64,000 nucleotides of DNA from an uncultured Aliarcobacter sp. (GTDB taxonomy: Bacteria; Campylobacterota; Campylobacteria; Campylobacterales; Arcobacteraceae), in contig CAXXLV010000002.1 of assembly GCA_963664305.2 (NCBI GenBank), positions 480,001 through 544,000 of the forward strand, read 5' to 3'. Shown here one piece after another: positions 32,358-43,598 of this stretch; the first letter of the stretch is position 1, and each line of letters begins with the position of its first letter. Both the position numbers and the translations under genes were made by a program. A model generated the notes under the pieces. It saw only the letters and a program-made list of their open reading frames with translations. It was not told the DNA's origin and searched no databases.

Positions 32358-32930
32358 ATGAATAAAGGATTAGAAAAATTTTATGAACTAGTTGAAGCTT
32401 TTGAGTCTTTACCTACAATTGGAAAAAAATCAGCTTTACGTTTAGCATACCATATTGTTATGAATGATAATTACTGTGGGATAAAGATTGCTCATAGTAT
32501 TGAAAATGCTCTAAAAAATATAACAAAATGCTCAAGATGTGGCTCTATGAGTGAACATGAAATTTGTGAATTTTGTTTAGATGAATCAAGAGATAATGAA
32601 AAATTATGTATTGTTCAAAGTGCAAAAGATATATTTGTGATTGAAGATTCAAATCAATTTGATGGTAGATATTTTGTTATTGAAGAGTTAGACCAAGATG
32701 TTATAGATTCTTTACAAAAGTTTATAATGGATAATGAGGTTAAAAATATACTTTTTGCAATTACACCATCTATTGCAAATGATGCATTTATCCTATTTAT
32801 TGAAGATAAGCTAAAGAATTTTGATATTAAATTTACAAAAATTGCTCAAGGTGTACCAACAGGTGTAAGTTTAGAAAATGTAGATATCTTATCTCTATCA
32901 AAAGCTATACAAAGTAAAGTCGAAATATAA
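32358..32930 (+). CDS. recR: Recombination mediator RecR
   Basis: LPTIGKKSALRLAY HhH motif, C4 zinc finger and KIAQGVPTG. Confidence 0.95.
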   Translation: MNKGLEKFYELVEAFESLPTIGKKSALRLAYHIVMNDNYCGIKIAHSIENALKNITKCSRCGSMSEHEICEFCLDESRDNEKLCIVQSAKDIFVIEDSNQFDGRYFVIEELDQDVIDSLQKFIMDNEVKNILFAITPSIANDAFILFIEDKLKNFDIKFTKIAQGVPTGVSLENVDILSLSKAIQSKVEI

Positions 32931-32932
32931 AA

Positions 32933-33109
32933 ATGGAAAAAAGAATAGTTTGTCAAAAATGTGTTTATTATTTTGTTACATGGGAAGCAAATAGACCACA
33001 CGGCTGTAAAGCTTATGGTTTTAAAACACCAGTATTACCTTCTATTACAGTTAAAAATTCAAGTGGAGAAGATTGTAAATTTTTCACTTTAAAAAATTTT
33101 CAAAGATAG
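32933..33109 (+). CDS. 58-aa four-cysteine small protein (not in ORF track)
   Basis: Manual translation: MEKRIVCQKCVYYFVTWEANRPHGCKAYGFKTPVLPSITVKNSSGEDCKFFTLKNFQR*. It lies 2 nt after recR and 5 nt before the next ATG. Confidence 0.8.
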   Translation: MEKRIVCQKCVYYFVTWEANRPHGCKAYGFKTPVLPSITVKNSSGEDCKFFTLKNFQR

Positions 33110-33114
33110 TATTT

Positions 33115-34596
33115 ATGGAAAATTTTATTGAGCAAATTGAAAAAAATAAAATTGCAATTATAAGAAAATGGATTTCATTTCCTACTGTAATTGAGCTTAT
33201 AAAAAAGTATGAATTAGATGAAAATCTATTTATAAGAAGATACTCTTTTGCAGTTGTTGAACATTTTATTCTGGTTATTAAAAAAGATGAAAAGACTGAA
33301 AAGAACTCTGCAGTAATTGATTTTTTAAAATATTTAAAAAAACAAAATTTTAAAATTAATGAACTTTTTTTAATCTTTTCTGCTTTTAGAGATTCTTTAA
33401 TTGATTTCATTTTTAAAATGAATATAGAAAATATAGAGTTAATAGAAAAGATAAATTTTAATTTTGAAAAGATTTTTTCAGTTCTTTTGGATATTTATTC
33501 AAAATCTATTTCTGAAATAGAGAGTGCTTTAAATAAATCTATTGATATTGTTGATAAATATGTAATTATGTCAAGAACTGATTTAAATGGAATAATTATT
33601 AGTGTCTCAAACGCTTTTTGTAAAGTTTCAGGTTATGAATCTTTTGAGTTAATAGGAAAACCTTTTGATTTTTTGAAACATTCTGATATGAAAGATGAAT
33701 TCTTTTTAAACATAAAAGAGATTATCCAATCAGGTGAAATGTGGCAAGGAGAAATAAAAAATCAAAAGAAAAATGGTGAGTTTTATTGGCTTAAAACTAC
33801 TATTCATCCAAATTTTGACAATAATGGAAAAGTTATAAGTTATGATGCAATAAATGAAGATATTACTTCTCAAAAAGAGTTGAAAAATCAACAAAATTTA
33901 CTTGTAGAACAATCTAAATCTGCTGCAATGGGTGAAATGATTAGTATGATAGCTCATCAATGGCGACAACCTTTACAAGCTGTTTCTATTTTGATTCAAA
34001 AACTTCCTTTGTTAAAAGAGATACAAGGTGAAATTTCTGATGAAATGTTAAATGATGTTGTTTCTCAAGTTTCGGTACAACTTGATTATATGTCAAAAAC
34101 AATTGATGATTTTAGAGATTATTTTAAACCAAATAAGAAAAAAGAAGAAGTTTATATAGAAAATGTTATAAACAAATCTATGGATTTTTTATCTTATTTA
34201 TTCAAAATAAATTCTGTCGAAATTAGATATAAAAATGAATCTACTTCAAAAATCGAGTTATTTTTAAATGAAATGGTACAAGTATTTATAAATCTAGCAA
34301 AAAATTCATGTGATGCTATGATTGAAAGAGAAATAAAAGATAGGTTTATAAATATTTATAGTTATGAAAGAAATAAAAAATTATATGTAGAGTTTGAAGA
34401 TAATGCAGGTGGAATAAGTAAAAATTTTTTAAACAAAATTTTTGAACCTTATTTCTCAACTAAAAGTAATAAAAATGGTACAGGTTTAGGATTGTATATG
34501 ATAAAAACTATAATTGAACAGTATAGTTTTGGTAAAATAGATGTTTATAATACTGAAGTTGGAACAAAATTTATTATTGAATTACCACTAAAATAG
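33115..34596 (+). CDS. Cytoplasmic PAS histidine kinase with helical (RsbRD_N-like) N-terminus
   Basis: PAS/PAC (ELIGKPF, NGEFYWL), MIAHQWRQPL, DNAGG and GTGLGLY. No TM segments. Confidence 0.88.
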   Translation: MENFIEQIEKNKIAIIRKWISFPTVIELIKKYELDENLFIRRYSFAVVEHFILVIKKDEKTEKNSAVIDFLKYLKKQNFKINELFLIFSAFRDSLIDFIFKMNIENIELIEKINFNFEKIFSVLLDIYSKSISEIESALNKSIDIVDKYVIMSRTDLNGIIISVSNAFCKVSGYESFELIGKPFDFLKHSDMKDEFFLNIKEIIQSGEMWQGEIKNQKKNGEFYWLKTTIHPNFDNNGKVISYDAINEDITSQKELKNQQNLLVEQSKSAAMGEMISMIAHQWRQPLQAVSILIQKLPLLKEIQGEISDEMLNDVVSQVSVQLDYMSKTIDDFRDYFKPNKKKEEVYIENVINKSMDFLSYLFKINSVEIRYKNESTSKIELFLNEMVQVFINLAKNSCDAMIEREIKDRFINIYSYERNKKLYVEFEDNAGGISKNFLNKIFEPYFSTKSNKNGTGLGLYMIKTIIEQYSFGKIDVYNTEVGTKFIIELPLK

Positions 34597-34605
34597 GAGT
34601 TAAGT

Positions 34606-35532
34606 TTGTTATATAAAGATTTTAAAGAGAGTATAAAAGCATTAGGTTTTTTAACAATTGAAGATTTTATACAATATTCTGGAGTTACATCTGATGATGT
34701 TTTAAATTGGGAAGAAAAAAATGAAGTACCTTATCTAGTTTCATTGATTTTACATCTTTTAAAAGGTGAGAAAGAGTTATTACCAACAAATTGGGCTTTA
34801 GATAGTGTAATTGAAGAGTGTTTACCTTTAGCTTCACTTTTAGAAGAGGCTTCATCATTCCCTCACAAATTAGAAGAGATGTTTTTATTACAAAAAAAAT
34901 TAAATGATTCTACAAATGGTAAAAATTGGGAATTAGGTTTAAATAAATTTGGAAAAGAGATAAATTGGCTTAGATGTATTCATATGGAAGTTGCTGAACT
35001 AATTGAATCAACTCCTTGGAAACACTGGAAAAATATCAATTCATCTCCTGATATGAATAATATTCATGTTGAACTAGTTGATATTTGGCACTTTTTAATG
35101 TCTTATATTTTACAAGAAACAAATGTTCCAAAAGCTGTTTCTTTATCTAATACTCATTGTATATATGAAGCTGCTGAAGATGTTGATGTAAAACTTATGG
35201 TAAAAGAAGCTGAAAAATTATCTTATATAGCTTTAGCAATTGATACAGGAAATATGCCTTCATTTAGTGGAATAGAAAGATTTATTGACCAATTCTTTAG
35301 ATGTTGTAAAATCTCTGGATTATCATTTACATGGTTACAAAAACTATATATTGGTAAAAATTGTTTAAATCAATTTAGACAAGATAATGGATATAAAGAA
35401 GGACATTACATAAAAGTTTGGAATGGAAATGAAGATAATGTTGTAATGGTTGATTTATTAGAAAAAATGGAAGACGTAAGTTTTGATGATTTATATAACA
35501 AATTAAAAGAAGAGTATAACAAATGTAAATAA
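34606..35532 (+). CDS. dut: Dimeric all-alpha dUTPase with an N-terminal HTH-like extension
   Basis: Motifs MEVAELIES.PWKHWK, VELVDIWHF, KNCLNQFRQDNGYKEG and EDN. TTG start after AGGAG. About 85 extra N-terminal residues. Confidence 0.88.
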   Translation: MLYKDFKESIKALGFLTIEDFIQYSGVTSDDVLNWEEKNEVPYLVSLILHLLKGEKELLPTNWALDSVIEECLPLASLLEEASSFPHKLEEMFLLQKKLNDSTNGKNWELGLNKFGKEINWLRCIHMEVAELIESTPWKHWKNINSSPDMNNIHVELVDIWHFLMSYILQETNVPKAVSLSNTHCIYEAAEDVDVKLMVKEAEKLSYIALAIDTGNMPSFSGIERFIDQFFRCCKISGLSFTWLQKLYIGKNCLNQFRQDNGYKEGHYIKVWNGNEDNVVMVDLLEKMEDVSFDDLYNKLKEEYNKCK

Positions 35533-35566: not shown

Positions 35567-36067
35567 TTATCTATAATCGTTTTTATATTCTACGTAGTGC
35601 CCAGCGTGAGCTATTAATTTATCAACATCTTCTTGTGTTAATTCTTTTACTACTTTTGCAGGACTTCCCATAATCATACTTCTTGGTGGAAATACTTTTC
35701 CAGCAGTTACAAGTGAATTTGCTCCTACTATACTTCCTTCTCCAATTACAGCATTATCTAAAATCGTTGCACTCATACCTATCAAACAATTATCTTCAAT
35801 TTTACAACCATGAAGCATAACTTTATGACCAATTGTTACATTATCTCCAATAATTGTTTTTGTATTTGTATCTGTATGAATACAAGATAAATCTTGAATA
35901 TTTGTATTTTTACCAATTCTTACTTCATTTACATCAGAACGAATTACACATCCAAACCAAACCGATGAATCTTCACCAATTTTTATATTTCCAATTAAAT
36001 CAGCACTTGGTGCAATCCAAGCACTTGGATGAATTTCTGGGTAAAATTCTTTAAATTTTAAAATCAC
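35567..36067 (-). CDS. Gamma-carbonic anhydrase-family protein (YrdA/PaaY-like)
   Basis: Hexapeptide repeats, TNIQD...IH and TIGHKVMLHGC. GTG start after AAGGAG. Confidence 0.92.
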   Translation of the reverse strand: MILKFKEFYPEIHPSAWIAPSADLIGNIKIGEDSSVWFGCVIRSDVNEVRIGKNTNIQDLSCIHTDTNTKTIIGDNVTIGHKVMLHGCKIEDNCLIGMSATILDNAVIGEGSIVGANSLVTAGKVFPPRSMIMGSPAKVVKELTQEDVDKLIAHAGHYVEYKNDYR

Positions 36068-36095
36068 AGCTCTCTCCTTAGCTAAATTTGAAACA

Positions 36096-36104
36096 ATTAT
36101 AGCA
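36096..36104 (-). promoter_or_regulatory. Extended -10 promoter for the gamma-CA gene
   Basis: TGCTATAAT on the minus strand, in the 45-nt gap after the M14 gene. Confidence 0.6.
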
Positions 36105-36112
36105 AAGGAAAC

Positions 36113-38698
36113 TTATTTTGCTATATATTCTAAAATTATTGGCTCACTATAATTTGGTACATTGTCATAGGTAAATATTGCATAATATTTGTTTATATCA
36201 GTTGCTCCAAAATCATCAAATGTATATTCATCTATTCCTGCATAAAGTTTTTGTCCATCATGAGATGAAAGAGGTTTTCTAAATGGATTTTTTATAACTT
36301 TTACTCCTACAAAATCTATATCTTTTGGATTAGTCCAAGTAAGTTTTATTTTTCCATTTTCAACAATCAATGAAGCATTTGAAACTTTTTCTACAGGAAA
36401 TCTTCTTTTTACAATATGTTCAATTATTAGTTTTGGAGAAAGATTTATATTTGTTGTTTCCCAAGATACTTTTTTATTTTTTAAAGTTTTAAGAGCTGAT
36501 GTTGGTTTTAAAACAAAAGCAACATTTGATTTGTTTTTTAATTTTTCGTTTAAAATTATTTCAGAAAAAGCATCAAAGATAAAGTATTGTGTTTGATTGT
36601 TTTTTAACTCATTTGCACTAATATCATAACCAATATTTTGAATAACTTCTCTATTTGTAATTGCTTCATAGTTTTTGTCAATATGTTCATCAATAAATTC
36701 AAGATGAAATCTAATATCATCTTTTATATAAATTTTTGTAGAGTTAAGTTCAAAATAGGCTTTTGTAATCATAGTATCATTGTATGGTGGTAAAGAAGAG
36801 AGATTAAATTCAAAAATAGAGTAGATTTTACTTCCTTTTTCATCAAATCCAGCACTAATTTCATCTCTTTTTATTTCTGCTTTACTTAAAGTACAGATTT
36901 CCTTTGGATATAAAGTTGTAATTGTTGGTTCTGTTGTAAAAGTTAATTCTAGTCTTGGACGATAGTTTAATCCAAAACCAAATTTTCCATAGCCAATATC
37001 CCATTGCATCATCTGTTTTGTTCTTCCAATTTTTAACTCTTTTGGACCTTCAACCCTTAAAACAATAGTATCTTTTCTAATAGAGTTTTTTAAAGTAATA
37101 CATTCTAAACCTGATAACTCCCAAGTTCTCCAGATACCTTGAGTTAATTGAAAAGATTGTGTAGCTCGTCCTAAATATTGGCTAATATGCATATTTTGAA
37201 CATCTTCAAAATTTGTGATATCTCCCATAGTATCTTGATTTACAATTCCAACATTCCATTCTCCATATTTTTCAATAGTTGTTGAAACTCTGTTTATTGG
37301 GTATAAATTCAACGAAGCTGATTTTATAATGGCATTTATTGGAAGAGATTTTACATTTATTGAAATAATTGCATAAGAAATACCTTTATCATCATCAACT
37401 CCAACAAATAAAGAGTTTACTCCAAAGTGTTTAGCATTGTTGTTTAAGTTTTCAGCAACATAACCTGTACCTTTTGCATTTGCATAGTATGTTCTACTAA
37501 ATTCATCATATTCAACTAAAGTTCGCACCTTTATTTGTGGACAAAATGGAGATTTTTGATTTGTTTTTTTATTTACGGCTCTTATGTTGTAATAGTAGTT
37601 TTTATTAGAAACTAGATTTATATCATTGAACTCTAAACTTTTTGTTTTTGCTATCAAATTTGAAGAGTTACAATATTGTTTATCTTTTGTACTTCTGAAT
37701 ATTTCAAAATATATATTTTCGTTTAATAAATAATCCCATTTAAGATTTACATGATTTGAACCAATATGTGTGATATTAAATCCTTCTACTCTTTTTATAT
37801 GATTGTTTTTTGCATAATTATCAACTTCTTTTAATGCATAAATAAGTGCAGGAATATGTTCTTTGATATTTTCACTTAAATCTTGCATATAATCACTAAT
37901 ATTTCTAGTTCCTACTTCAACAACTGTTGATATAATTCCTAAAGAATAATAAAACTCTCTACCACTTCCACCTATTAATTTTGCAGGTGGTTTTCCTTGA
38001 TGTATTCCATATTCACGACCAGATATTTTTCTTATCTCTTCAGCCATATTTGCACATAAAGTGTTCATATCTGTCGTATCAAAAGTATCTTCATGTCTAA
38101 AATCGTGCGCTGGGAAAAATACATTTCCTTGACTATGGTAATCAAGTGCAATAGTAATATTTGGATGAGTTAAAACAAAATCTCGCAAGGCTTTAGTTTC
38201 TGGTTCACTAAATGCTTCAGGTCCACCATAAACATTTGAAGTTGTTGTTGTACTTTTATTAAATCCAATTGGAAAATTTCTATTTAAATCAACTCCATAA
38301 GTTCCATCTGCATTTTGTCTTCTATTTTTTCTCCAAAAAGAGAAGTGATTTCTTGAATATTCAAAACCATCAGGATTAGCACAAGGTACCATATAAACTG
38401 TACTTTCATTTAGATAGATTTGTAAACTTGGGTCTGTTTCTAAATTTTTTAAAATATAAATTGCAAACTCAATTGCTAACTCATGCCCAATCCACTCTCT
38501 TGCATGTATAGTTCCTGTATAAAAAAGTGCTGGCTTTGTATGGGATATTTTTATATTTTTTGAAATGGTTATAAGATATATATCTCTTTTTTCCCAAGTT
38601 TGACCAATTGATTCTATCTTAAAATTATTTGGATATTTTTCTTGTAATTCATTAAAAATATTTATTGATTCTTTGTAGGACCTATACAATTTTTTCAA
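36113..38698 (-). CDS. M14 zinc carboxypeptidase with FN3 and beta-sandwich accessory domains
   Basis: IHAREW (HxxE), NPDG, RKNRR, GVDLNRNF, FSEPET, DYHSQG and EVG, followed by FN3-like segments. TTG start after GGAG. Confidence 0.9.
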   Translation of the reverse strand: MKKLYRSYKESINIFNELQEKYPNNFKIESIGQTWEKRDIYLITISKNIKISHTKPALFYTGTIHAREWIGHELAIEFAIYILKNLETDPSLQIYLNESTVYMVPCANPDGFEYSRNHFSFWRKNRRQNADGTYGVDLNRNFPIGFNKSTTTTSNVYGGPEAFSEPETKALRDFVLTHPNITIALDYHSQGNVFFPAHDFRHEDTFDTTDMNTLCANMAEEIRKISGREYGIHQGKPPAKLIGGSGREFYYSLGIISTVVEVGTRNISDYMQDLSENIKEHIPALIYALKEVDNYAKNNHIKRVEGFNITHIGSNHVNLKWDYLLNENIYFEIFRSTKDKQYCNSSNLIAKTKSLEFNDINLVSNKNYYYNIRAVNKKTNQKSPFCPQIKVRTLVEYDEFSRTYYANAKGTGYVAENLNNNAKHFGVNSLFVGVDDDKGISYAIISINVKSLPINAIIKSASLNLYPINRVSTTIEKYGEWNVGIVNQDTMGDITNFEDVQNMHISQYLGRATQSFQLTQGIWRTWELSGLECITLKNSIRKDTIVLRVEGPKELKIGRTKQMMQWDIGYGKFGFGLNYRPRLELTFTTEPTITTLYPKEICTLSKAEIKRDEISAGFDEKGSKIYSIFEFNLSSLPPYNDTMITKAYFELNSTKIYIKDDIRFHLEFIDEHIDKNYEAITNREVIQNIGYDISANELKNNQTQYFIFDAFSEIILNEKLKNKSNVAFVLKPTSALKTLKNKKVSWETTNINLSPKLIIEHIVKRRFPVEKVSNASLIVENGKIKLTWTNPKDIDFVGVKVIKNPFRKPLSSHDGQKLYAGIDEYTFDDFGATDINKYYAIFTYDNVPNYSEPIILEYIAK

Positions 38699-38701
38699 AA
38701 T

Positions 38702-40192
38702 CTATTCTCCAACTTTTAATCTTGATTTTAATTGAGCAAATTTATTTTTACCAATACCATCAATATTTTTTAAATCCTCAATGCACTTGATTTCTCCTAC
38801 TTTTTCTCTAAAATCAAAGATGATTTTTGCTAATTTATTTCCAATTCCTTTGATTTTTTTCAAATCTTCTTTATTAACACAATTTATATCAATTCTCATA
38901 TCATCAATATGCTCTTCCCAAGATTTTAACATTTGTTCATCTATTGATTCTAACTCTAATAAATCAGAGCAATCAGTAATAATGTTATCTTGTAAATACT
39001 CTTTAATCTCTATTGCTAAATCTTCTTCCATTCCATATAAACTCATCAAATCTGTTAAACTAGCTTTGTTAAAATCTATTTTTCTAGGGCTAAATTCATC
39101 TTGTTTTGGATTTTGTTTAGCAATTTCAATTTCTGAATTTTCAGGAAAAGGCATATCCTCTTCATTTGATTTTTCTGTCATTTCCATTTCAAAAATATCT
39201 TTTTTATCTTTTATAAATCTTTCTCCATCATAACTTTGTGTGTATTTACCAAAAGTGATGTTTCTTAGAGTTCTTAAAAGTGATGAATCAATTTTTCCTA
39301 ACTCTTCCCACGAGAATAGGGGAATATGTGGTTTTGGATATTTTCCTTTTGAAAAATCCCACATTAAATATTGACAAATCCAATCTCTAATATATGGAAA
39401 AGCAGCAAATGCTGTAGCACACTCTAAAATATAAGCTTTATTTGTGTTTTCATCAATAGCTATATCACAAGCAAAATATTCAGCTTTTGAAGCTTTAGAA
39501 GCATTAACTGCAAGTTCTAAAGCATTCATCGGAACATTTTTATATGACATTGAACCACCTTGAGAAGTATTTGTGATCCATTGATTTTTTCCGGAATATC
39601 TCCAAAATGCACAAACTGGTTTATGACCAATTAACATAACTCTAATATCTCCTGAGTCTTTTAGTTTAATTGCATTTTGTGTATAGATTGGATTATATTT
39701 TTTTAGTTCAAGTAATTCTTTTGCTTCTTTATAGTTGTTTGCTTTATGTACATAATATCCACCATAATTTGATGGTCCATAACTTCTTTTTATAATTTGT
39801 GGATAATTTGCTTTATTTTTTAAATAATCTAAACCTTTTTCCATATTGTAAAAAATTTTTGTTTTTGGAATTGATAGATTATATTTTTTACAAAAAAGCG
39901 TTACATTTTCTTTTGATTTATTTGGAAATTGGCTCTCTATTGATGGAACAAATCTAACATTTGGTAATTCTTTTGCAATTTCAACAAAAGTATCATAAGC
40001 AGTTGCAGGAATATTCCCAACTAATATATCGATCTTTTTTTTCTTTACTTCTTTTATGAATCTCTCTTTATCATTTTTCCAATGATAAACAACAGATTCA
40101 ATTCTGTCACTCCAACCTTTGAAGTTTGATTTATCAAAGAATCTTAAAACATAATCTAGATATAAAAGTCCAATTTTCGGTAGTTTTTTCAT
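38702..40192 (-). CDS. Atypical RimK-like ATP-grasp protein fused to two ComEA-like HhH modules
   Basis: YPQIIKRSYG, GDIRVMLIG, WITNTSQGG, CDIAID and LECATAF. C-terminal IDIN...LKKIKGIGNKLA...LKNIDGIGKNKF. Confidence 0.85.
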   Translation of the reverse strand: MKKLPKIGLLYLDYVLRFFDKSNFKGWSDRIESVVYHWKNDKERFIKEVKKKKIDILVGNIPATAYDTFVEIAKELPNVRFVPSIESQFPNKSKENVTLFCKKYNLSIPKTKIFYNMEKGLDYLKNKANYPQIIKRSYGPSNYGGYYVHKANNYKEAKELLELKKYNPIYTQNAIKLKDSGDIRVMLIGHKPVCAFWRYSGKNQWITNTSQGGSMSYKNVPMNALELAVNASKASKAEYFACDIAIDENTNKAYILECATAFAAFPYIRDWICQYLMWDFSKGKYPKPHIPLFSWEELGKIDSSLLRTLRNITFGKYTQSYDGERFIKDKKDIFEMEMTEKSNEEDMPFPENSEIEIAKQNPKQDEFSPRKIDFNKASLTDLMSLYGMEEDLAIEIKEYLQDNIITDCSDLLELESIDEQMLKSWEEHIDDMRIDINCVNKEDLKKIKGIGNKLAKIIFDFREKVGEIKCIEDLKNIDGIGKNKFAQLKSRLKVGE

Positions 40193-41118
40193 TTTATTTC
40201 TCCTTTGTTTAATGCTTTCCTATCTATTAAATCAACAATTAAATCAATTTTTTTATCATTGAAATTAAGACCTAGTTTTTCTTGTTCAGGAGTTGCAAAT
40301 GCTGGAATTCCATTTACTTCTAAGACTATATATTCTTCTTTTTTTCTATCATAGATGATGTCAACTCCCGCGATATCAAGTCCCAAAACTTCTGTTGCTT
40401 TGATTGCAAGATTTATTATCTCTTCATTTGGTTCTCTTAAAAATACACTTCCACCACTTGTGATATTTGTTTTCCAATGTCCAACAGCTGCTTTTCTTCC
40501 ATAACAACCAACAAATTTACCATCAACAATATCAATTCTATAATCAGTGTTATCATAATCTACATATTTTTCTACATAGAAATATTTAAGATTTATTTGA
40601 TTTAAAAAAGGAATTAACATATTTAAAGCTTCAACGCTATCTATTTTTGTAACTCCAATTCCTCCCCAACCATCAGTTGGTTTATAAACCATTTTGTTCC
40701 ATTTTTTCATAATATTTTCTAGTCTATAAGTTTCATCTTTATTACAAAGTTTATAATCAGCAGTTCTAATTCCATGTTTTCTTAAAAAAAATGATGTATG
40801 AAATTTATCTTCACTTATTTCAAAAGCTTCATAAGAGTTAATCATAGGAATGATTCTATTTAGAGCCTTGTATAAATATACTTGATAAGGAGTTTGTTCT
40901 CCTGCGTTATAAGAGAAAAATAAATCTAATTTATCTAGTTTTAGATTTTTATTTTTCATCTCATATATAATATGACCATTTTTTGCAATTGCATCTTTTA
41001 GATTGATATTAGGTAAAACTTCGATATCTCTTTCTTTTAACTTTTTAATCATTTTTTTTTGAATAACATCTCCACCACTATTTTGATAAAGCCACATACC
41101 AATATTTCTTTTTGCCAT
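40189..41118 (-). CDS. RimK-like ATP-grasp amidoligase
   Basis: Motifs EDKFHT, VYKPTDGWGGIGV, EKYV, DYRI, WKTNITSGG, AGVDII and LEVNGIPAF. Confidence 0.9.
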   Translation of the reverse strand: MAKRNIGMWLYQNSGGDVIQKKMIKKLKERDIEVLPNINLKDAIAKNGHIIYEMKNKNLKLDKLDLFFSYNAGEQTPYQVYLYKALNRIIPMINSYEAFEISEDKFHTSFFLRKHGIRTADYKLCNKDETYRLENIMKKWNKMVYKPTDGWGGIGVTKIDSVEALNMLIPFLNQINLKYFYVEKYVDYDNTDYRIDIVDGKFVGCYGRKAAVGHWKTNITSGGSVFLREPNEEIINLAIKATEVLGLDIAGVDIIYDRKKEEYIVLEVNGIPAFATPEQEKLGLNFNDKKIDLIVDLIDRKALNKGEIK

Positions 41119-41129
41119 AATTTCCCCTT

Positions 41130-42224
41130 TTATATATGTTTTTGAAAATGATTTAAGATTTTTGTCATAAGTTCTATTCTTGAAATAAAACTACTTTTTA
41201 ATGCTCTTTCATTTATTGTATGGTCTCCATCACCAAATGGTCCAAAACCATCAAGTGTTGTTACACCACAACTAGCAACAATATTTGCATCACTAACTCC
41301 ACCTCTTTTTTCTTTTGAAATTTTTGTGTTTGTGATGTTTTCTAACTCTTTTATAAATTTCAGTTGTTTGTCATTTTCAGCCATAACATCTCTTTGAATT
41401 CCTCCACTAAGGGTTGATTTTGAACCTTTTACATAAGAAGTATTTACTATCTTTTCTAATGAGTCTAATACTCTTTGTTTTTCTTCATTTGATGTATATC
41501 TGATTTCTAAAAGTAGTTCACATTTTGGAGAGATTGTATTTGCGCCAATTCCTCCATTTATTTTTCCAACATTAACTGTAGTTTGACGTTCTAGGTTTGT
41601 TAGTTTTACCAATTCTTGCAGTTTGAAACTAGCTTCCAAGTTTGCATCAATTCCTTTATCATAGTGATTCCCTGCGTGACTAGCTAATCCTTCTATTGTA
41701 ATAGTAAAAGTTCCTACACCTTTTCTTTGAGTTACAACTTCAAGATTAATTCCAGCTGCTTCAAAAACAAAACAATAATCATAATTTGTGGCAATTGATG
41801 AAGTTAATTCTTTTGAATCATCACTTCCAGTTTCTTCATCAGAAACCAAAAGAAAATCAATGTTAAATACTTCAGCATTTTGATTGAAAATATTTCTAAG
41901 AGCTTGTAAAGCAACAATATTTCCACCTTTCATATCGCAAACTCCAGGTCCATAAACCCAAAATTCATCTTCTTTAAATCCTTCAAAACTATTTGGAGGA
42001 AAAACTGTGTCATTGTGTCCTAAAAGTAAGATTTTATTGCCAGATTTTTTTTCGGAGGAAAAGAGTAGGTGATTACCAATGTTTTCTCTTGTATAAATAG
42101 AAGTATTAAATCCAAGAGGTTCAATCCAACTTGTCATTTTTTGTCCAACTAAATCAACGCCTGATTTGTTTTTTGTGTAAGAGTTTATATTTACGATTGT
42201 TTCTAAATCTTTTAAGTAATCCAT
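41130..42224 (-). CDS. M20 metallopeptidase, glutamate carboxypeptidase (CPG2)-like
   Basis: Motifs GHNDTVF, GPGVCDMKGG, SDEETGS, FEAA, ASHAG, GGVSDAN and GDHTINE. No signal peptide. Confidence 0.9.
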   Translation of the reverse strand: MDYLKDLETIVNINSYTKNKSGVDLVGQKMTSWIEPLGFNTSIYTRENIGNHLLFSSEKKSGNKILLLGHNDTVFPPNSFEGFKEDEFWVYGPGVCDMKGGNIVALQALRNIFNQNAEVFNIDFLLVSDEETGSDDSKELTSSIATNYDYCFVFEAAGINLEVVTQRKGVGTFTITIEGLASHAGNHYDKGIDANLEASFKLQELVKLTNLERQTTVNVGKINGGIGANTISPKCELLLEIRYTSNEEKQRVLDSLEKIVNTSYVKGSKSTLSGGIQRDVMAENDKQLKFIKELENITNTKISKEKRGGVSDANIVASCGVTTLDGFGPFGDGDHTINERALKSSFISRIELMTKILNHFQKHI

Positions 42225-42329: not shown

Positions 42330-42357
42330 AGCTAAAGTGGAAATTCCACTTTTAGCT
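42330..42357 (-). terminator. argG terminator hairpin
   Basis: AGCTAAAGTGGAA-A-TTCCACTTTTAGCT immediately after the argG stop. Confidence 0.65.
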
Positions 42358-43598
42358 TATTTTCTGTTTGGATTGCTTCCAGCGATGATAAATCTTAAAG
42401 CATTTAATCTAATAAATCCTTCTGCATCTTTTTGATTATAAACTTCATCTTTTTCAAATGTTGAGTAAGCATCATTATATAAAGACATTTGAGAATCTCT
42501 TCCAACAACTGTTACGTTACCTTTGTATAATTTGATTTTAACTGTACCTTCAACATTTTTTTGAGTTGCATCAATAGCAGCTTGAAGCATTTCTCTTTCA
42601 GGTGAGAACCAGTATCCTTGGTAAATTAACTTAGCATATCTTGGCATTAACTCATCTTTTAAGTGAGCAGCTTCTCTATCTAAACAAATAGATTCGATTG
42701 CTCTGTGAGCTTTTAACATGATAGTTCCACCTGGAGTTTCATAACAACCTCTAGCTTTCATACCAACATATCTATTTTCAACGATATCAACTCTTCCAAT
42801 ACCGTGTTTGTTTCCTAATTCATTTAATTTAGCAAGTAATGTAGCTGGTGACATTTCAACACCATCAATAGCAACTGGGTCACCATTTTTATATGTTAAT
42901 GTTAAATATTCAGGTGCATCTGGTGCTTTTTCAGGAGCAGTTGTCCATAACCACATAGATTCTTCTGGCTCATTTGCTGGATTTTCTAAATGTAAACCTT
43001 CATAAGAGATATGTAAAAGGTTAGCATCCATAGAATAAGGACTTGCTTTTGGATTTCCATTCTCATCAACGTGTTTTTTAGAGATTTCAATTCCATTTTT
43101 TCTTGCATATTCAAGTAAACTTTCTCTTGAATTTAAGTCCCATTCTCTCCAAGGAGCAATAACTTTGATATCAGGTCTAAGTGCAAGGGCTCCTAATTCA
43201 AATCTAACTTGGTCATTTCCTTTTCCTGTAGCTCCATGTGAAACTGCATCAGCTCCAGTTTCATTTGCAATATCAATTAATTTTTTTGCAATTAATGGTC
43301 TAGCAATAGAAGTTCCTAATAAATATTCACCTTCATAAATTGCATTTGCTCTAAACATAGGGAAAACGTAATCTTTAACAAATTCTTCTTTAATATCTAA
43401 AATATAAACATTTTCAGGTTTGATACCACAAGCAATTGCTTTAACTCTTGCTGGTTCAACTTCTTCACCTTGTCCTAAATCAGCTGTAAAAGTAACAACT
43501 TCAGCTTTGTATTCATCTTGAAGCCATTTTAAAATAATAGAAGTATCAAGACCTCCACTATAAGCTAAAACTACTTTTTTAACATCTTTTTTACTCAT
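42357..43598 (-). CDS. argG: Argininosuccinate synthase
   Basis: Motifs [35 protein letters not shown] and [11 protein letters not shown]. Confidence 0.98.

Follow-up and report, generated by a model that had tools for sequence, protein, structure and literature searches.

The 64,000-nucleotide (nt) window analysed here, a stretch of contig CAXXLV010000002.1 from an uncultured Aliarcobacter sp. (GenBank assembly GCA_963664305.2), carries at positions 36113 to 42224 a block of four minus-strand genes encoding an M20-family metallopeptidase, two RimK-type ATP-grasp ligases, hereafter AG1 and AG2, the latter fused to helix-hairpin-helix (HhH) domains, and a large M14 carboxypeptidase. The block is a real, conserved and horizontally mobile four-gene module; its enzyme families are known, their combination uncharacterised. 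The gene arrangement, the domain content, the intact catalytic motifs, the arginine in the M14 pocket and the co-inheritance of the four genes are direct observations, and the chemistry of the module is predictable with moderate confidence. The reading favoured here, to which we would give an even chance, is a reversible addition and trimming of glutamate-type residues on an acceptor possibly associated with nucleic acid. The module and its boundaries comprise the following features, with protein lengths in amino acids (aa):

41130..42224, minus strand: gene 1, M20-family metallopeptidase of the carboxypeptidase G2 (CPG2) type (364 aa; PF01546 62.8 bits, PF07687 66.2 bits)
40189..41118, minus strand: gene 2 (AG1), RimK-family ATP-grasp ligase with the canonical E-V-N motif (309 aa; PF08443 69.4 bits)
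38702..40192, minus strand: gene 3 (AG2), whole open reading frame (ORF), RimK-type ATP-grasp with two HHH_3 stretches (496 aa)
39203..40192, minus strand: AG2 residues 1-330, divergent, strongly basic ATP-grasp core in which the E-x-N asparagine is missing; invariant LECATAFAAFPY
38702..39202, minus strand: AG2 residues 331-496, with a flexible linker and an HhH-like domain (372-429), both acidic, ahead of a basic HHH_3 domain of ComEA type (430-496)
36113..38698, minus strand: gene 4, M14 carboxypeptidase, whole ORF (861 aa, TTG start)
37814..38698, minus strand: gene 4 residues 1-295, zinc carboxypeptidase domain of M14A type, Arg247 lying in its predicted specificity pocket (PF00246 200.6 bits)
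36113..37813, minus strand: gene 4 residues 296-861, with FN3, two DNRLRE/CBM96-like β-sandwich modules and FN3 (NF033679 39.8 bits, cut-off 34)
42334..42352, no strand assigned: palindromic 19-nt hairpin just past the argG stop, terminator-like boundary of the upstream gene
36096..36104, minus strand: extended -10 TGCTATAAT ahead of the gamma carbonic anhydrase gene, downstream boundary outside the module
42357-43598: argG, upstream flank (635 bits to NF001770)
35567-36067: gamma carbonic anhydrase, downstream flank

The conservation of the block as a unit was followed by scanning an AG2 alignment against one genome per species, which yielded 80 loci. All four genes are present in 61 of them, always in the order M20, AG1, AG2, M14, with the M20 gene either co-oriented or divergent; a further 13 loci are short of a gene only at a contig end, and six lack genes despite sufficient room (AG2 alone in L046, L047 and L088; no M14 in L078; no M20 in L091; neither M20 nor AG1 in L095). 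The recurrence of the complete set in 61 of the 80 loci, all from other genomes, places the arrangement far beyond chance. A sequence-only reading of the window had taken the genes for a self-contained module and had named a gene-neighbourhood search as the check; the co-occurrence of the four genes across genera and phyla bears this out. Clustering of the 3691 ORFs of at least 50 aa from the same loci recovers the four module families in 78, 70, 64 and 62 loci, and no fifth common family, the next ranks being taken by shadow ORFs on the antisense strand and by neighbours specific to Arcobacter; this clustering could overlook a very small gene. As related genomes are not independent, all module counts describe a pattern and carry no statistical test.

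The carriers comprise (i) Campylobacterota, including Arcobacteraceae, Sulfurospirillum, Sulfurimonas, Sulfurovum, Nitratiruptor, Nitratifractor and Hydrogenimonas; (ii) Gammaproteobacteria, including Thiomicrorhabdus, Veronia, Endozoicomonas, Pseudoalteromonas, Psychromonas and Photobacterium; and (iii) one Desulfuromonadales metagenome-assembled genome (MAG). Among 40 relatives of the source genome, a full-length AG2 orthologue occurs in 7 of the 24 other genomes of the same genus and in 5 of the 16 genomes from other families of the order. In all seven loci retrieved within the genus, from six of these seven AG2-positive genomes and from G019, M20-AG1-AG2-M14 lies between argG and the carbonic anhydrase gene, in some of them with unrelated DNA inserted on one side of the block. 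In three other genera the same four-gene block lies in different surroundings, the argG and carbonic anhydrase neighbourhood being confined to Arcobacteraceae.

The genes also go together at the level of whole genomes. An even sample of 401 Campylobacterota genomes, each at least 90% complete, contains AG2 (core match, E up to 1e-60) in 37 genomes and M14 (E up to 1e-100) in 38, with both in 37 and M14 without AG2 in one (G379); 363 genomes yielded neither, among them every genome of the two largest sampled families (0/118 and 0/158 genomes, 0/276 together). Genome G038 has its AG2 gene between efp and dnaE and an adjacent pair of AG1 and M14 genes about 840 kb away, so that the genes are retained together in the genome even where they are unlinked. 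One genus holds AG2 unlinked between efp and dnaE (L017 7336-13094, L088 7806-13597).

The identities between gammaproteobacterial and campylobacterotal copies lie inside the range seen within Campylobacterota, and both the Thiomicrorhabdus locus and the Desulfuromonadales MAG locus have the same Sulfurimonas locus as best match for all four genes, which argues that the block moved between phyla as a whole. By these sequence comparisons, the module appears to have moved horizontally as a block. In a genome of the same genus (G013; L012 10403-12767), the M20 gene is found in two halves (residues 1-188 and 187-364) around an insert of about 1.2 kb with a gene whose product carries a DDE_Tnp_1-associated domain; AG1, AG2 and M14 are intact there.

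Within the window, the same four minus-strand ORFs with the same coordinates were recovered as in the sequence-only reading, separated from gene 1 to gene 4 by an 11-nt gap, a 4-nt overlap (ATGA) and a 3-nt gap (window ORF list). The junctions read 'TAA aaggggaaatt ATG', 'aaggagaaataaAATGA' and 'ggagaaTAGattTTG', so that a Shine-Dalgarno-like purine run precedes each start and each gene would possess its own ribosome-binding site. One message is probably translated for all four genes, the gene spacing being the only pointer to this. The two boundaries claimed earlier, an argG terminator and an extended -10 promoter of the carbonic anhydrase gene, were both located: the argG hairpin is a consensus-type match only, with a T-run beginning about 12 nt farther on, and TGCTATAAT lies in the 45-nt spacer between the M14 stop and the carbonic anhydrase gene, in which the terminator scan finds no terminator-like site. 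Between positions 35000 and 44000, Rfam gives two chance-level matches only and no riboswitch or leader. The promoter scan is uninformative, with 36 promoter-like sites vs 50.3 expected, and a 7218-nt Logan contig from a metagenomic relative, whose RNA label is guessed, covers 36000-41774 and in itself shows no transcript. Inspection of the translations by eye reveals no hydrophobic signal-peptide core at any of the four N-termini, as the earlier reading had also held, and the M14 domain begins at residue 5, so that a signal peptide or pro-segment would not fit; the four proteins are thus predicted to be cytoplasmic.

The first ligase, AG1, exceeds the PF08443 cut-off of 21 bits and reaches 134.7 bits against TIGR00768, just under the cut-off of 143.4. 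Residues K146, R194, D253, E267 and N269 are invariant in 30 orthologues, the motif reading LEVNGIPAF, and these signatures make AG1 a probable member of the RimK family of ATP-grasp enzymes, with the full set of usual ATP/Mg motifs, including E-x-N. Its best NCBIfam match is the tetrahydromethanopterin:alpha-L-glutamate ligase MptN (146.5 bits vs a cut-off of 350), and CofF also matches.

The second ligase, AG2, is the more unusual protein. Full-length relatives form about five clusters among 1.84 billion cluster representatives, all at least 60% identical to the query, below which scores drop to one 287-aa protein (42%) and then to generic RimK-like proteins near 30%. Its core is the best-conserved part of the module, with a mean identity of 0.75 within the phylum and 0.69 vs Gammaproteobacteria. 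The structural model of AG2 (predicted local distance difference test, pLDDT, 77) finds LysX (3vpd), ArgX (3vpb) and RimK (7qys) as its nearest Foldseek neighbours, at template-modelling (TM) scores of 0.66-0.74, and D-Ala-D-Ala ligases as weaker matches, at 0.57-0.60; as modelled, the AG2 fold belongs to the RimK/LysX/ArgX class of ATP-grasp enzymes. Residues K135, K150, R184, D243 and E257 are invariant, and the arginine of the DIRV motif and the aspartate and glutamate metal ligands are retained. Three cysteines, C194, C242 and C258, are likewise invariant in the active-site region, two of them directly beside the metal ligands Asp243 and Glu257, and they coincide with the loss of the E-x-N asparagine.

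The AG2 core bears a net charge of +20 in the window and +12 on average; along the tail, the charge is -6 in the linker, -13 in the first HhH domain and +4 in the terminal HHH_3 domain. Model confidence falls below a pLDDT of 50 at residues 310-332 and 351-369, and lies at 82-91 in the HhH part. Two stretches of the tail match PF12836 (80.4 bits vs a cut-off of 27), the ComEA-type HhH domain; against the full ComEA family TIGR01259, the score of 69.7 is under the cut-off of 152.35. A tail of HhH type is present in 13 of 18 diverse AG2 orthologues (E up to 0.01), seven of them above the Pfam cut-off, with matches that differ by lineage, being either HHH_3 or HHH_5; it is the kind of tail that seems to be conserved, and not its sequence. 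A complex prediction for AG1 and AG2 residues 1-340, with a 30-row alignment for each, scored 0.00 and is uninformative both ways.

Neither ligase is an ordinary RimK or GshB orthologue; such orthologues, with products that neither peptidase cleaves, were what the sequence-only reading had named as able to undo it. Against the RimK equivalog NF007764, with a cut-off of 331 bits, AG1 scores 54 bits and AG2 17.3 bits, and Pfam finds no Rimk_N match in AG1 or AG2. The true RimK of the genome, which has such a match, is encoded elsewhere, and its separate presence argues that the module ligases are not the ordinary rimK:

Contig 1, 534715-535281, within 533215-536781 (L102 1426-2358), minus strand: separate canonical RimK of the same genome (PF08443 about 219 bits, Rimk_N 118.7 bits)

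Directly upstream of this gene lies a 141-aa PF05618 'Zn_protease' protein (L102 2371-2796, minus strand), of a family that we take to be RimB-type, so that the genome seems to hold a RimB/RimK-like pair besides the four-gene module. The E. coli S6 protein ends in a Glu-Glu acceptor. The S6 of this genome (contig 2, L114 1429-1785, minus strand) ends in ...EAAKKAAK, not in glutamates, despite the canonical RimK. Among the products of neighbouring genes, L19, S16 and EF-P were considered as acceptors and rejected since their C-termini are not acidic; S6 with its KKAAK end was set aside with them.

The M20 peptidase exceeds the cut-offs of both PF01546 and PF07687, the latter a dimerisation domain, and its best solved relative is carboxypeptidase G2 (1cg2, E 1.2e-24). 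The motifs HxD, D97, EE130-131, E155 and H345 are conserved in 65 orthologues and are presumably the metal ligands, as in CPG2, an enzyme that releases C-terminal glutamate. The protein falls below all NCBIfam equivalog cut-offs, including the glutamate carboxypeptidase NF004788 (180.3 vs 349) and the hydrolase NF005602 (204.4 vs 357); against LysK, it scores 43 bits.

The M14 enzyme comprises, according to Pfam, Peptidase_M14 at residues 15-266 and DNRLRE at residues 613-759, and its nearest solved relatives, CPA4 and CPT (E 1e-29 to 1e-40), place it in the carboxypeptidase A/T type. Residues H65, E68, R123, R126, N139, R140, H188, R247 and E261 are invariant in 27 orthologues; the alignment thus presents as intact the zinc ligands H65/E68/H188, the catalytic E261 and the equivalents of Arg127/Asn144/Arg145, the set expected of an active enzyme. 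Arg247 aligns to Ile255 of carboxypeptidase A4 and is shared by at least 98% of 62 sequences, standing 59 residues from the zinc histidine in both proteins and 14 residues from the catalytic glutamate vs 15 in CPA4. The profile alignment to CPT ends at residue 178, and residues 170-300 alone gave weak, incomplete alignments. A basic residue at position 255 is described as accompanying acidic P1' specificity in carboxypeptidase O (CPO) and in the cytosolic carboxypeptidases (CCPs) that deglutamylate tubulin (PMC4230590, PMC9925722), and the M14 pocket, with Arg247 at this position, looks suited to C-terminal acidic residues. The earlier reading had pointed to the release of C-terminal glutamate by CPG2-type M20 enzymes and to deglutamylases among M14 carboxypeptidases; with this invariant arginine and the CPG2 affinity of the M20 enzyme, both peptidases look adapted to freeing an acidic residue from a C-terminus. 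The 55 solved chains matched by the M14 profile are all of CPA, CPB, CPT, CPO or CPD/E/M/N type and none is named CCP (M14D); a CCP identity was therefore rejected, the M14 domain also beginning at residue 5.

The tail of the M14 protein (residues 296-861) has no solved relative by sequence. Its AlphaFold2 model (pLDDT 89.2) displays an FN3 domain, two larger β-sandwiches and a second FN3 domain, the best single-domain Foldseek match being a chondroitin-sulfate-binding carbohydrate-binding module (CBM; 8wab_A, TM 0.75), and protein-atlas features assign the tail to CBM96 (0.91). The founding member of CBM96 is described as binding internal alginate chains, and characterised CBM96/DNRLRE members as binding internal stretches of acidic polymers (PMC9971899). 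The modelled tail modules are leads to a polymer-binding role. They share the β-sandwich type, present twice in the tail, with the alginate-lyase CBM96/DNRLRE modules and the 8wab CBM, but those belong to secreted carbohydrate-active enzymes, whereas the M14 tail is part of a cytoplasmic peptidase and its modules carry no overall basic charge.

In the favoured reading, AG1 and AG2 would convert a carboxylate to its activated acyl phosphate form and join an amino acid to it, one ligase probably starting the chain and the other extending it; the M14 enzyme would take acidic residues singly from the free C-terminal end, and the CPG2-like M20 enzyme would remove the last residue or cleave short products. 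The residue is most likely L-glutamate in alpha linkage. The acceptor would be an acidic macromolecule on or near nucleic acid, for instance a growing oligo-glutamate or the tail of a protein that associates with the nucleoid or the ribosome; the basic AG2 core, the terminal basic HhH domain and the extreme degree to which AG2 is conserved hint at such a location. Which amino acid is used and in what linkage, whether the process is reversible, what the acceptor is and how the enzymes share the work are all inferred. The structural class of both ligases favours the reading, as solved members of the RimK/LysX/ArgX class extend a C-terminal glutamate of a protein. The sequence-only reading had proposed a reversible cytoplasmic amino-acid tagging or polyamide turnover system; of this, the unity of the module, the non-RimK nature of the ligases and the apparent acidic preference of the peptidases find support in the results, the remainder being a matter of interpretation.

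Several observations weigh against the favoured reading. In AG2, the asparagine of E-x-N is absent from all 78 of 78 sequences, the motif being LECATAFAAFPY with the glutamate kept, whether or not the alignment is given a gap, so that AG2 may be weakly active, differently metallated or a non-catalytic partner. In Pseudomonas RimK, N262 and R189 are described as touching the last glutamate of the bound chain (PMC10092738); judged by its position, N262 would be the E-x-N asparagine, in which case its loss in AG2 could change the metal site and the substrate site alike. The same source names S7, R8, S14, R64 and S68 as the residues holding poly-glutamate in Pseudomonas RimK (PMC10092738), and a comparison by eye shows AG1, which begins IGMWLYQNSGG, to be without these N-terminal serine and arginine residues. 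The acidic charge of the first HhH domain (-13) leaves the predicted DNA binding to the terminal HhH domain only. For the M14 enzyme, the assignment of Arg247 comes from a moderate-confidence sequence alignment to CPA4 and from spacing, not from coordinates, and an equivalent of Tyr248 is not evident, the aligned Lys240 being non-conserved and a conserved Tyr250 lying three residues past Arg247. Finally, the CBM-like modules have isoelectric points (pI) of 6.0-7.7, so that their charge lends no support to polyanion binding.

A bolder form of the favoured reading, which we think unlikely, would make the module a bacterial counterpart of the eukaryotic 'glutamylation code', with an initiator and an elongator writing, and M14 and M20 erasing, oligo-glutamate tails on a conserved nucleic-acid-bound protein. 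The target would be nucleoid, repair or ribosome-associated, and the tails would tune the hold of this protein on DNA or RNA; the tethered HhH domain would bring the ligase to its target, while the acidic linker and acidic first HhH domain would restrain the ligase and could mimic its substrate. Under this proposal, the scattered links to base-excision-repair genes and to a ribosomal operon would become meaningful.

The nearest characterised system, built on the same logic, is RimK with RimB. RimK is described as adding glutamates to RpsF, RimB as removing them, and RimK also as making free poly-alpha-glutamate (PMC11957791); in RimABK of Pseudomonas and with RimK of E. coli, a RimK-family ATP-grasp enzyme adds alpha-linked glutamate to a protein C-terminus and a co-encoded peptidase removes it (PMC11957791, PMC7343187, PMC4741518). 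The module differs in having two ligases, neither of them a RimK orthologue and one bearing HhH domains, and, as erasers, two metallocarboxypeptidases in place of RimB, a retropepsin-like endopeptidase. An identity with RimABK was rejected, as the four genes hold only M20, ATP-grasp, HhH, M14 and DNRLRE domains and neither RimA nor RimB. The earlier statement that no characterised pathway has this combination holds in part: the full-text literature search found no paper on the four-gene set, a search that did not cover the amidoligase-neighbourhood survey of Iyer et al. 2009, which may describe it, but a glutamylation pair of ligase and peptidase is known in RimK/RimB (PMC11957791), so that the add-and-remove idea is not without precedent.

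Other known systems resemble parts of the module. Eukaryotic tubulin glutamylation distinguishes initiating from elongating TTLL ligases, and chain-shortening from last-residue-removing CCP peptidases. By analogy, this split of labour would map neatly onto two ligases and two peptidases. The likeness extends to ATP-grasp-fold ligases and to M14 carboxypeptidases with Arg255 that remove acidic residues (PMC4230590), whereas the module ligases are of RimK/LysX type and not TTL-type, the M14 enzyme is of CPA/CPT (M14A-like) type, the second eraser is an M20 enzyme and no tubulin-like target is known for the module. Carboxypeptidase O shares an M14A-type domain without pro-segment, Arg255 and acidic C-terminal specificity (PMC6214572, PMC9925722), but it is an animal gut enzyme without FN3/CBM96-like modules and has no ligase partner. 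The LysX/ArgX-LysW-LysK pathways contribute the closest solved folds to AG2 and pair an ATP-grasp ligase with an M20 hydrolase that undoes the amide; the module, in contrast, has no linked carrier or pathway enzymes, its M20 enzyme is CPG2-like and an M14 enzyme is present.

Among the alternatives to a tagged acceptor, a free polymer is somewhat unlikely: the product of the ligases would be free oligo- or poly-alpha-glutamate, or else a mixed acidic polyamide, serving as a reserve of nitrogen or carbon or for osmotic purposes. The M14 enzyme, held by its four β-sandwich modules, would degrade this chain from the C-terminus and M20 would split what is left at the di- or tripeptide stage, much as cyanophycin is made by its synthetase and broken down by cyanophycinase and a dipeptidase. 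The proposal draws on the free poly-alpha-glutamate attributed to RimK and on the poly-glutamate seen in RimK crystals (PMC11957791, PMC10092738), on the absence of a linked acceptor gene from the 80 loci, and on relatives of the M14 modules that bind long acidic polymers, namely alginate (CBM96, PMC9971899) and chondroitin sulfate (8wab). The named carrier genera are, moreover, free-living and mostly marine or sulfidic, and the module was found in 0/276 genomes of the two largest sampled Campylobacterota families. On the other hand, an HhH tail conserved in kind has no obvious storage role, the extreme conservation of AG2 hints at a macromolecular partner that is itself conserved, and the CBM-like modules are not basic. 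Glutamylation and salvage of a small molecule or cofactor, quite unlikely in our view, would have the ligases add one or two glutamates, like MptN, CofF or mammalian RIMKLA/B, and the peptidases hydrolyse the product as glutamate carboxypeptidases act on N-acetyl-aspartyl-glutamate or folates. It accords with the MptN and CofF matches of AG1, although these scores lie far under the cut-offs, and with CPG2, the nearest solved relative of M20, acting on folate-type N-acyl glutamates. A mammalian RimK homologue, Rimklb, is also described (PMC7907349). Against this, an 861-aa carboxypeptidase with four β-sandwich modules and an HhH-tailed ligase exceed the needs of a metabolite pathway, and neither a transporter nor a further biosynthetic gene is linked to the module.

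The remaining explanations have little room. A LysW-type carrier pathway, in which an ATP-grasp ligase (LysX/ArgX) loads an amino acid onto the C-terminal glutamate of the carrier and an M20 enzyme (LysK) releases the product, is very unlikely: the AG2 fold is closest to LysX and ArgX, the [LysW]-lysine hydrolase model matches M20 (E 3.9e-11) and the block adjoins argG in Arcobacter, but no carrier, kinase, reductase or aminotransferase gene is linked, the 80 loci sharing only the four families among ORFs of at least 50 aa, the argG neighbourhood is restricted to Arcobacteraceae and M20 is far closer to CPG2 types (204 and 180 bits) than to LysK. Cytoplasmic recycling of murein peptides, with M14 and M20 cutting gamma-D-Glu/diaminopimelate peptides that the ATP-grasp enzymes re-ligate, is highly improbable. 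Some M14 enzymes, such as MpaA and Csd4/Pgp1, do cut murein peptides, and the pocket arginine could conceivably hold the distal carboxylate of diaminopimelate, but no described murein peptidase appears among the 55 solved-chain matches, no mur, mpl, amp or ldc gene is linked and the ligases fall in the RimK/LysX class and not with D-Ala-D-Ala ligases. Just as improbable is a role in conflict or defence, with the module tagging the proteins or nucleic acid of invaders. The patchy presence of the module in the genus (7 of 24 other genomes) and its transfer between phyla as a whole would fit such a role, whereas the PADLOC families give no match for any of the four proteins (E up to 0.01), the phage collection holds no copy and the plasmid collection holds one match, to a Photobacterium record of 2.1 Mb that is classed there as a plasmid, is non-mobilizable and has no annotation beneath the module match. 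The flanks are housekeeping genes and not defence islands, and sequence conservation is very high, unlike that of fast-evolving defence genes.

Reversible polyglutamylation is a major regulatory modification of eukaryotes. In bacteria it is known, to our knowledge, only for RimK/RimB on ribosomal protein S6. In the favoured reading, the module would be a second, differently built bacterial polyglutamylation system, with two ligases and two exopeptidases, spread through free-living Campylobacterota and marine Gammaproteobacteria and horizontally moved as a unit. If the product were a free polyamide, the module would represent a new pathway to a reserve or osmotic polymer, and its enzymes could serve to synthesise and trim poly-alpha-glutamate. 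As the parts are soluble enzymes with clear assays, the question of the substrate is directly approachable at the bench.

The genes neighbouring the module vary, with two recurring themes, DNA repair or replication genes and the rpsP-rimM-trmD-rplS operon. Endonuclease III starts 0-4 nt past the M14 stop in three related loci, forming a five-gene string; an exonuclease III-type gene follows AG2 in one further locus, two Pseudoalteromonas loci have fpg converging on the M20 gene, another locus has a uvrA-like gene next to the module and dnaE lies beside the unlinked AG2 in two. The operon abuts the module upstream of M20 in eight Sulfurimonas-type loci (L036, L048, L049, L050, L054, L056, L060, L070), and in a different orientation in one Endozoicomonas locus (L093 4940-7201). 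Over perhaps twenty independent contexts, the two themes are a lead, not a result. In addition, 27 of 91 loci, drawn from three lineages and with this window among them, have a gene for a dimeric dUTPase no farther than about 4 kb from the module. The corresponding features are:

L075 9803-10447; L091 9821-10471; L096 14539-15189; L083 12128-12901; L089 7309-8118; L094 6175-6984; L079 10592-13264: repair genes beside the module (endonuclease III, exonuclease III-type, Fpg, UvrA-like)
Window 34606-35532, plus strand: dimeric dUTPase PF08761, 308 aa, with about 87 extra N-terminal residues
Window 33115-34596, plus strand: PAS histidine kinase, directly ahead of the dUTPase

At window positions 32500-34500, just left of the region studied, the G+C content is very low (0.23-0.24) and the GC skew switches.

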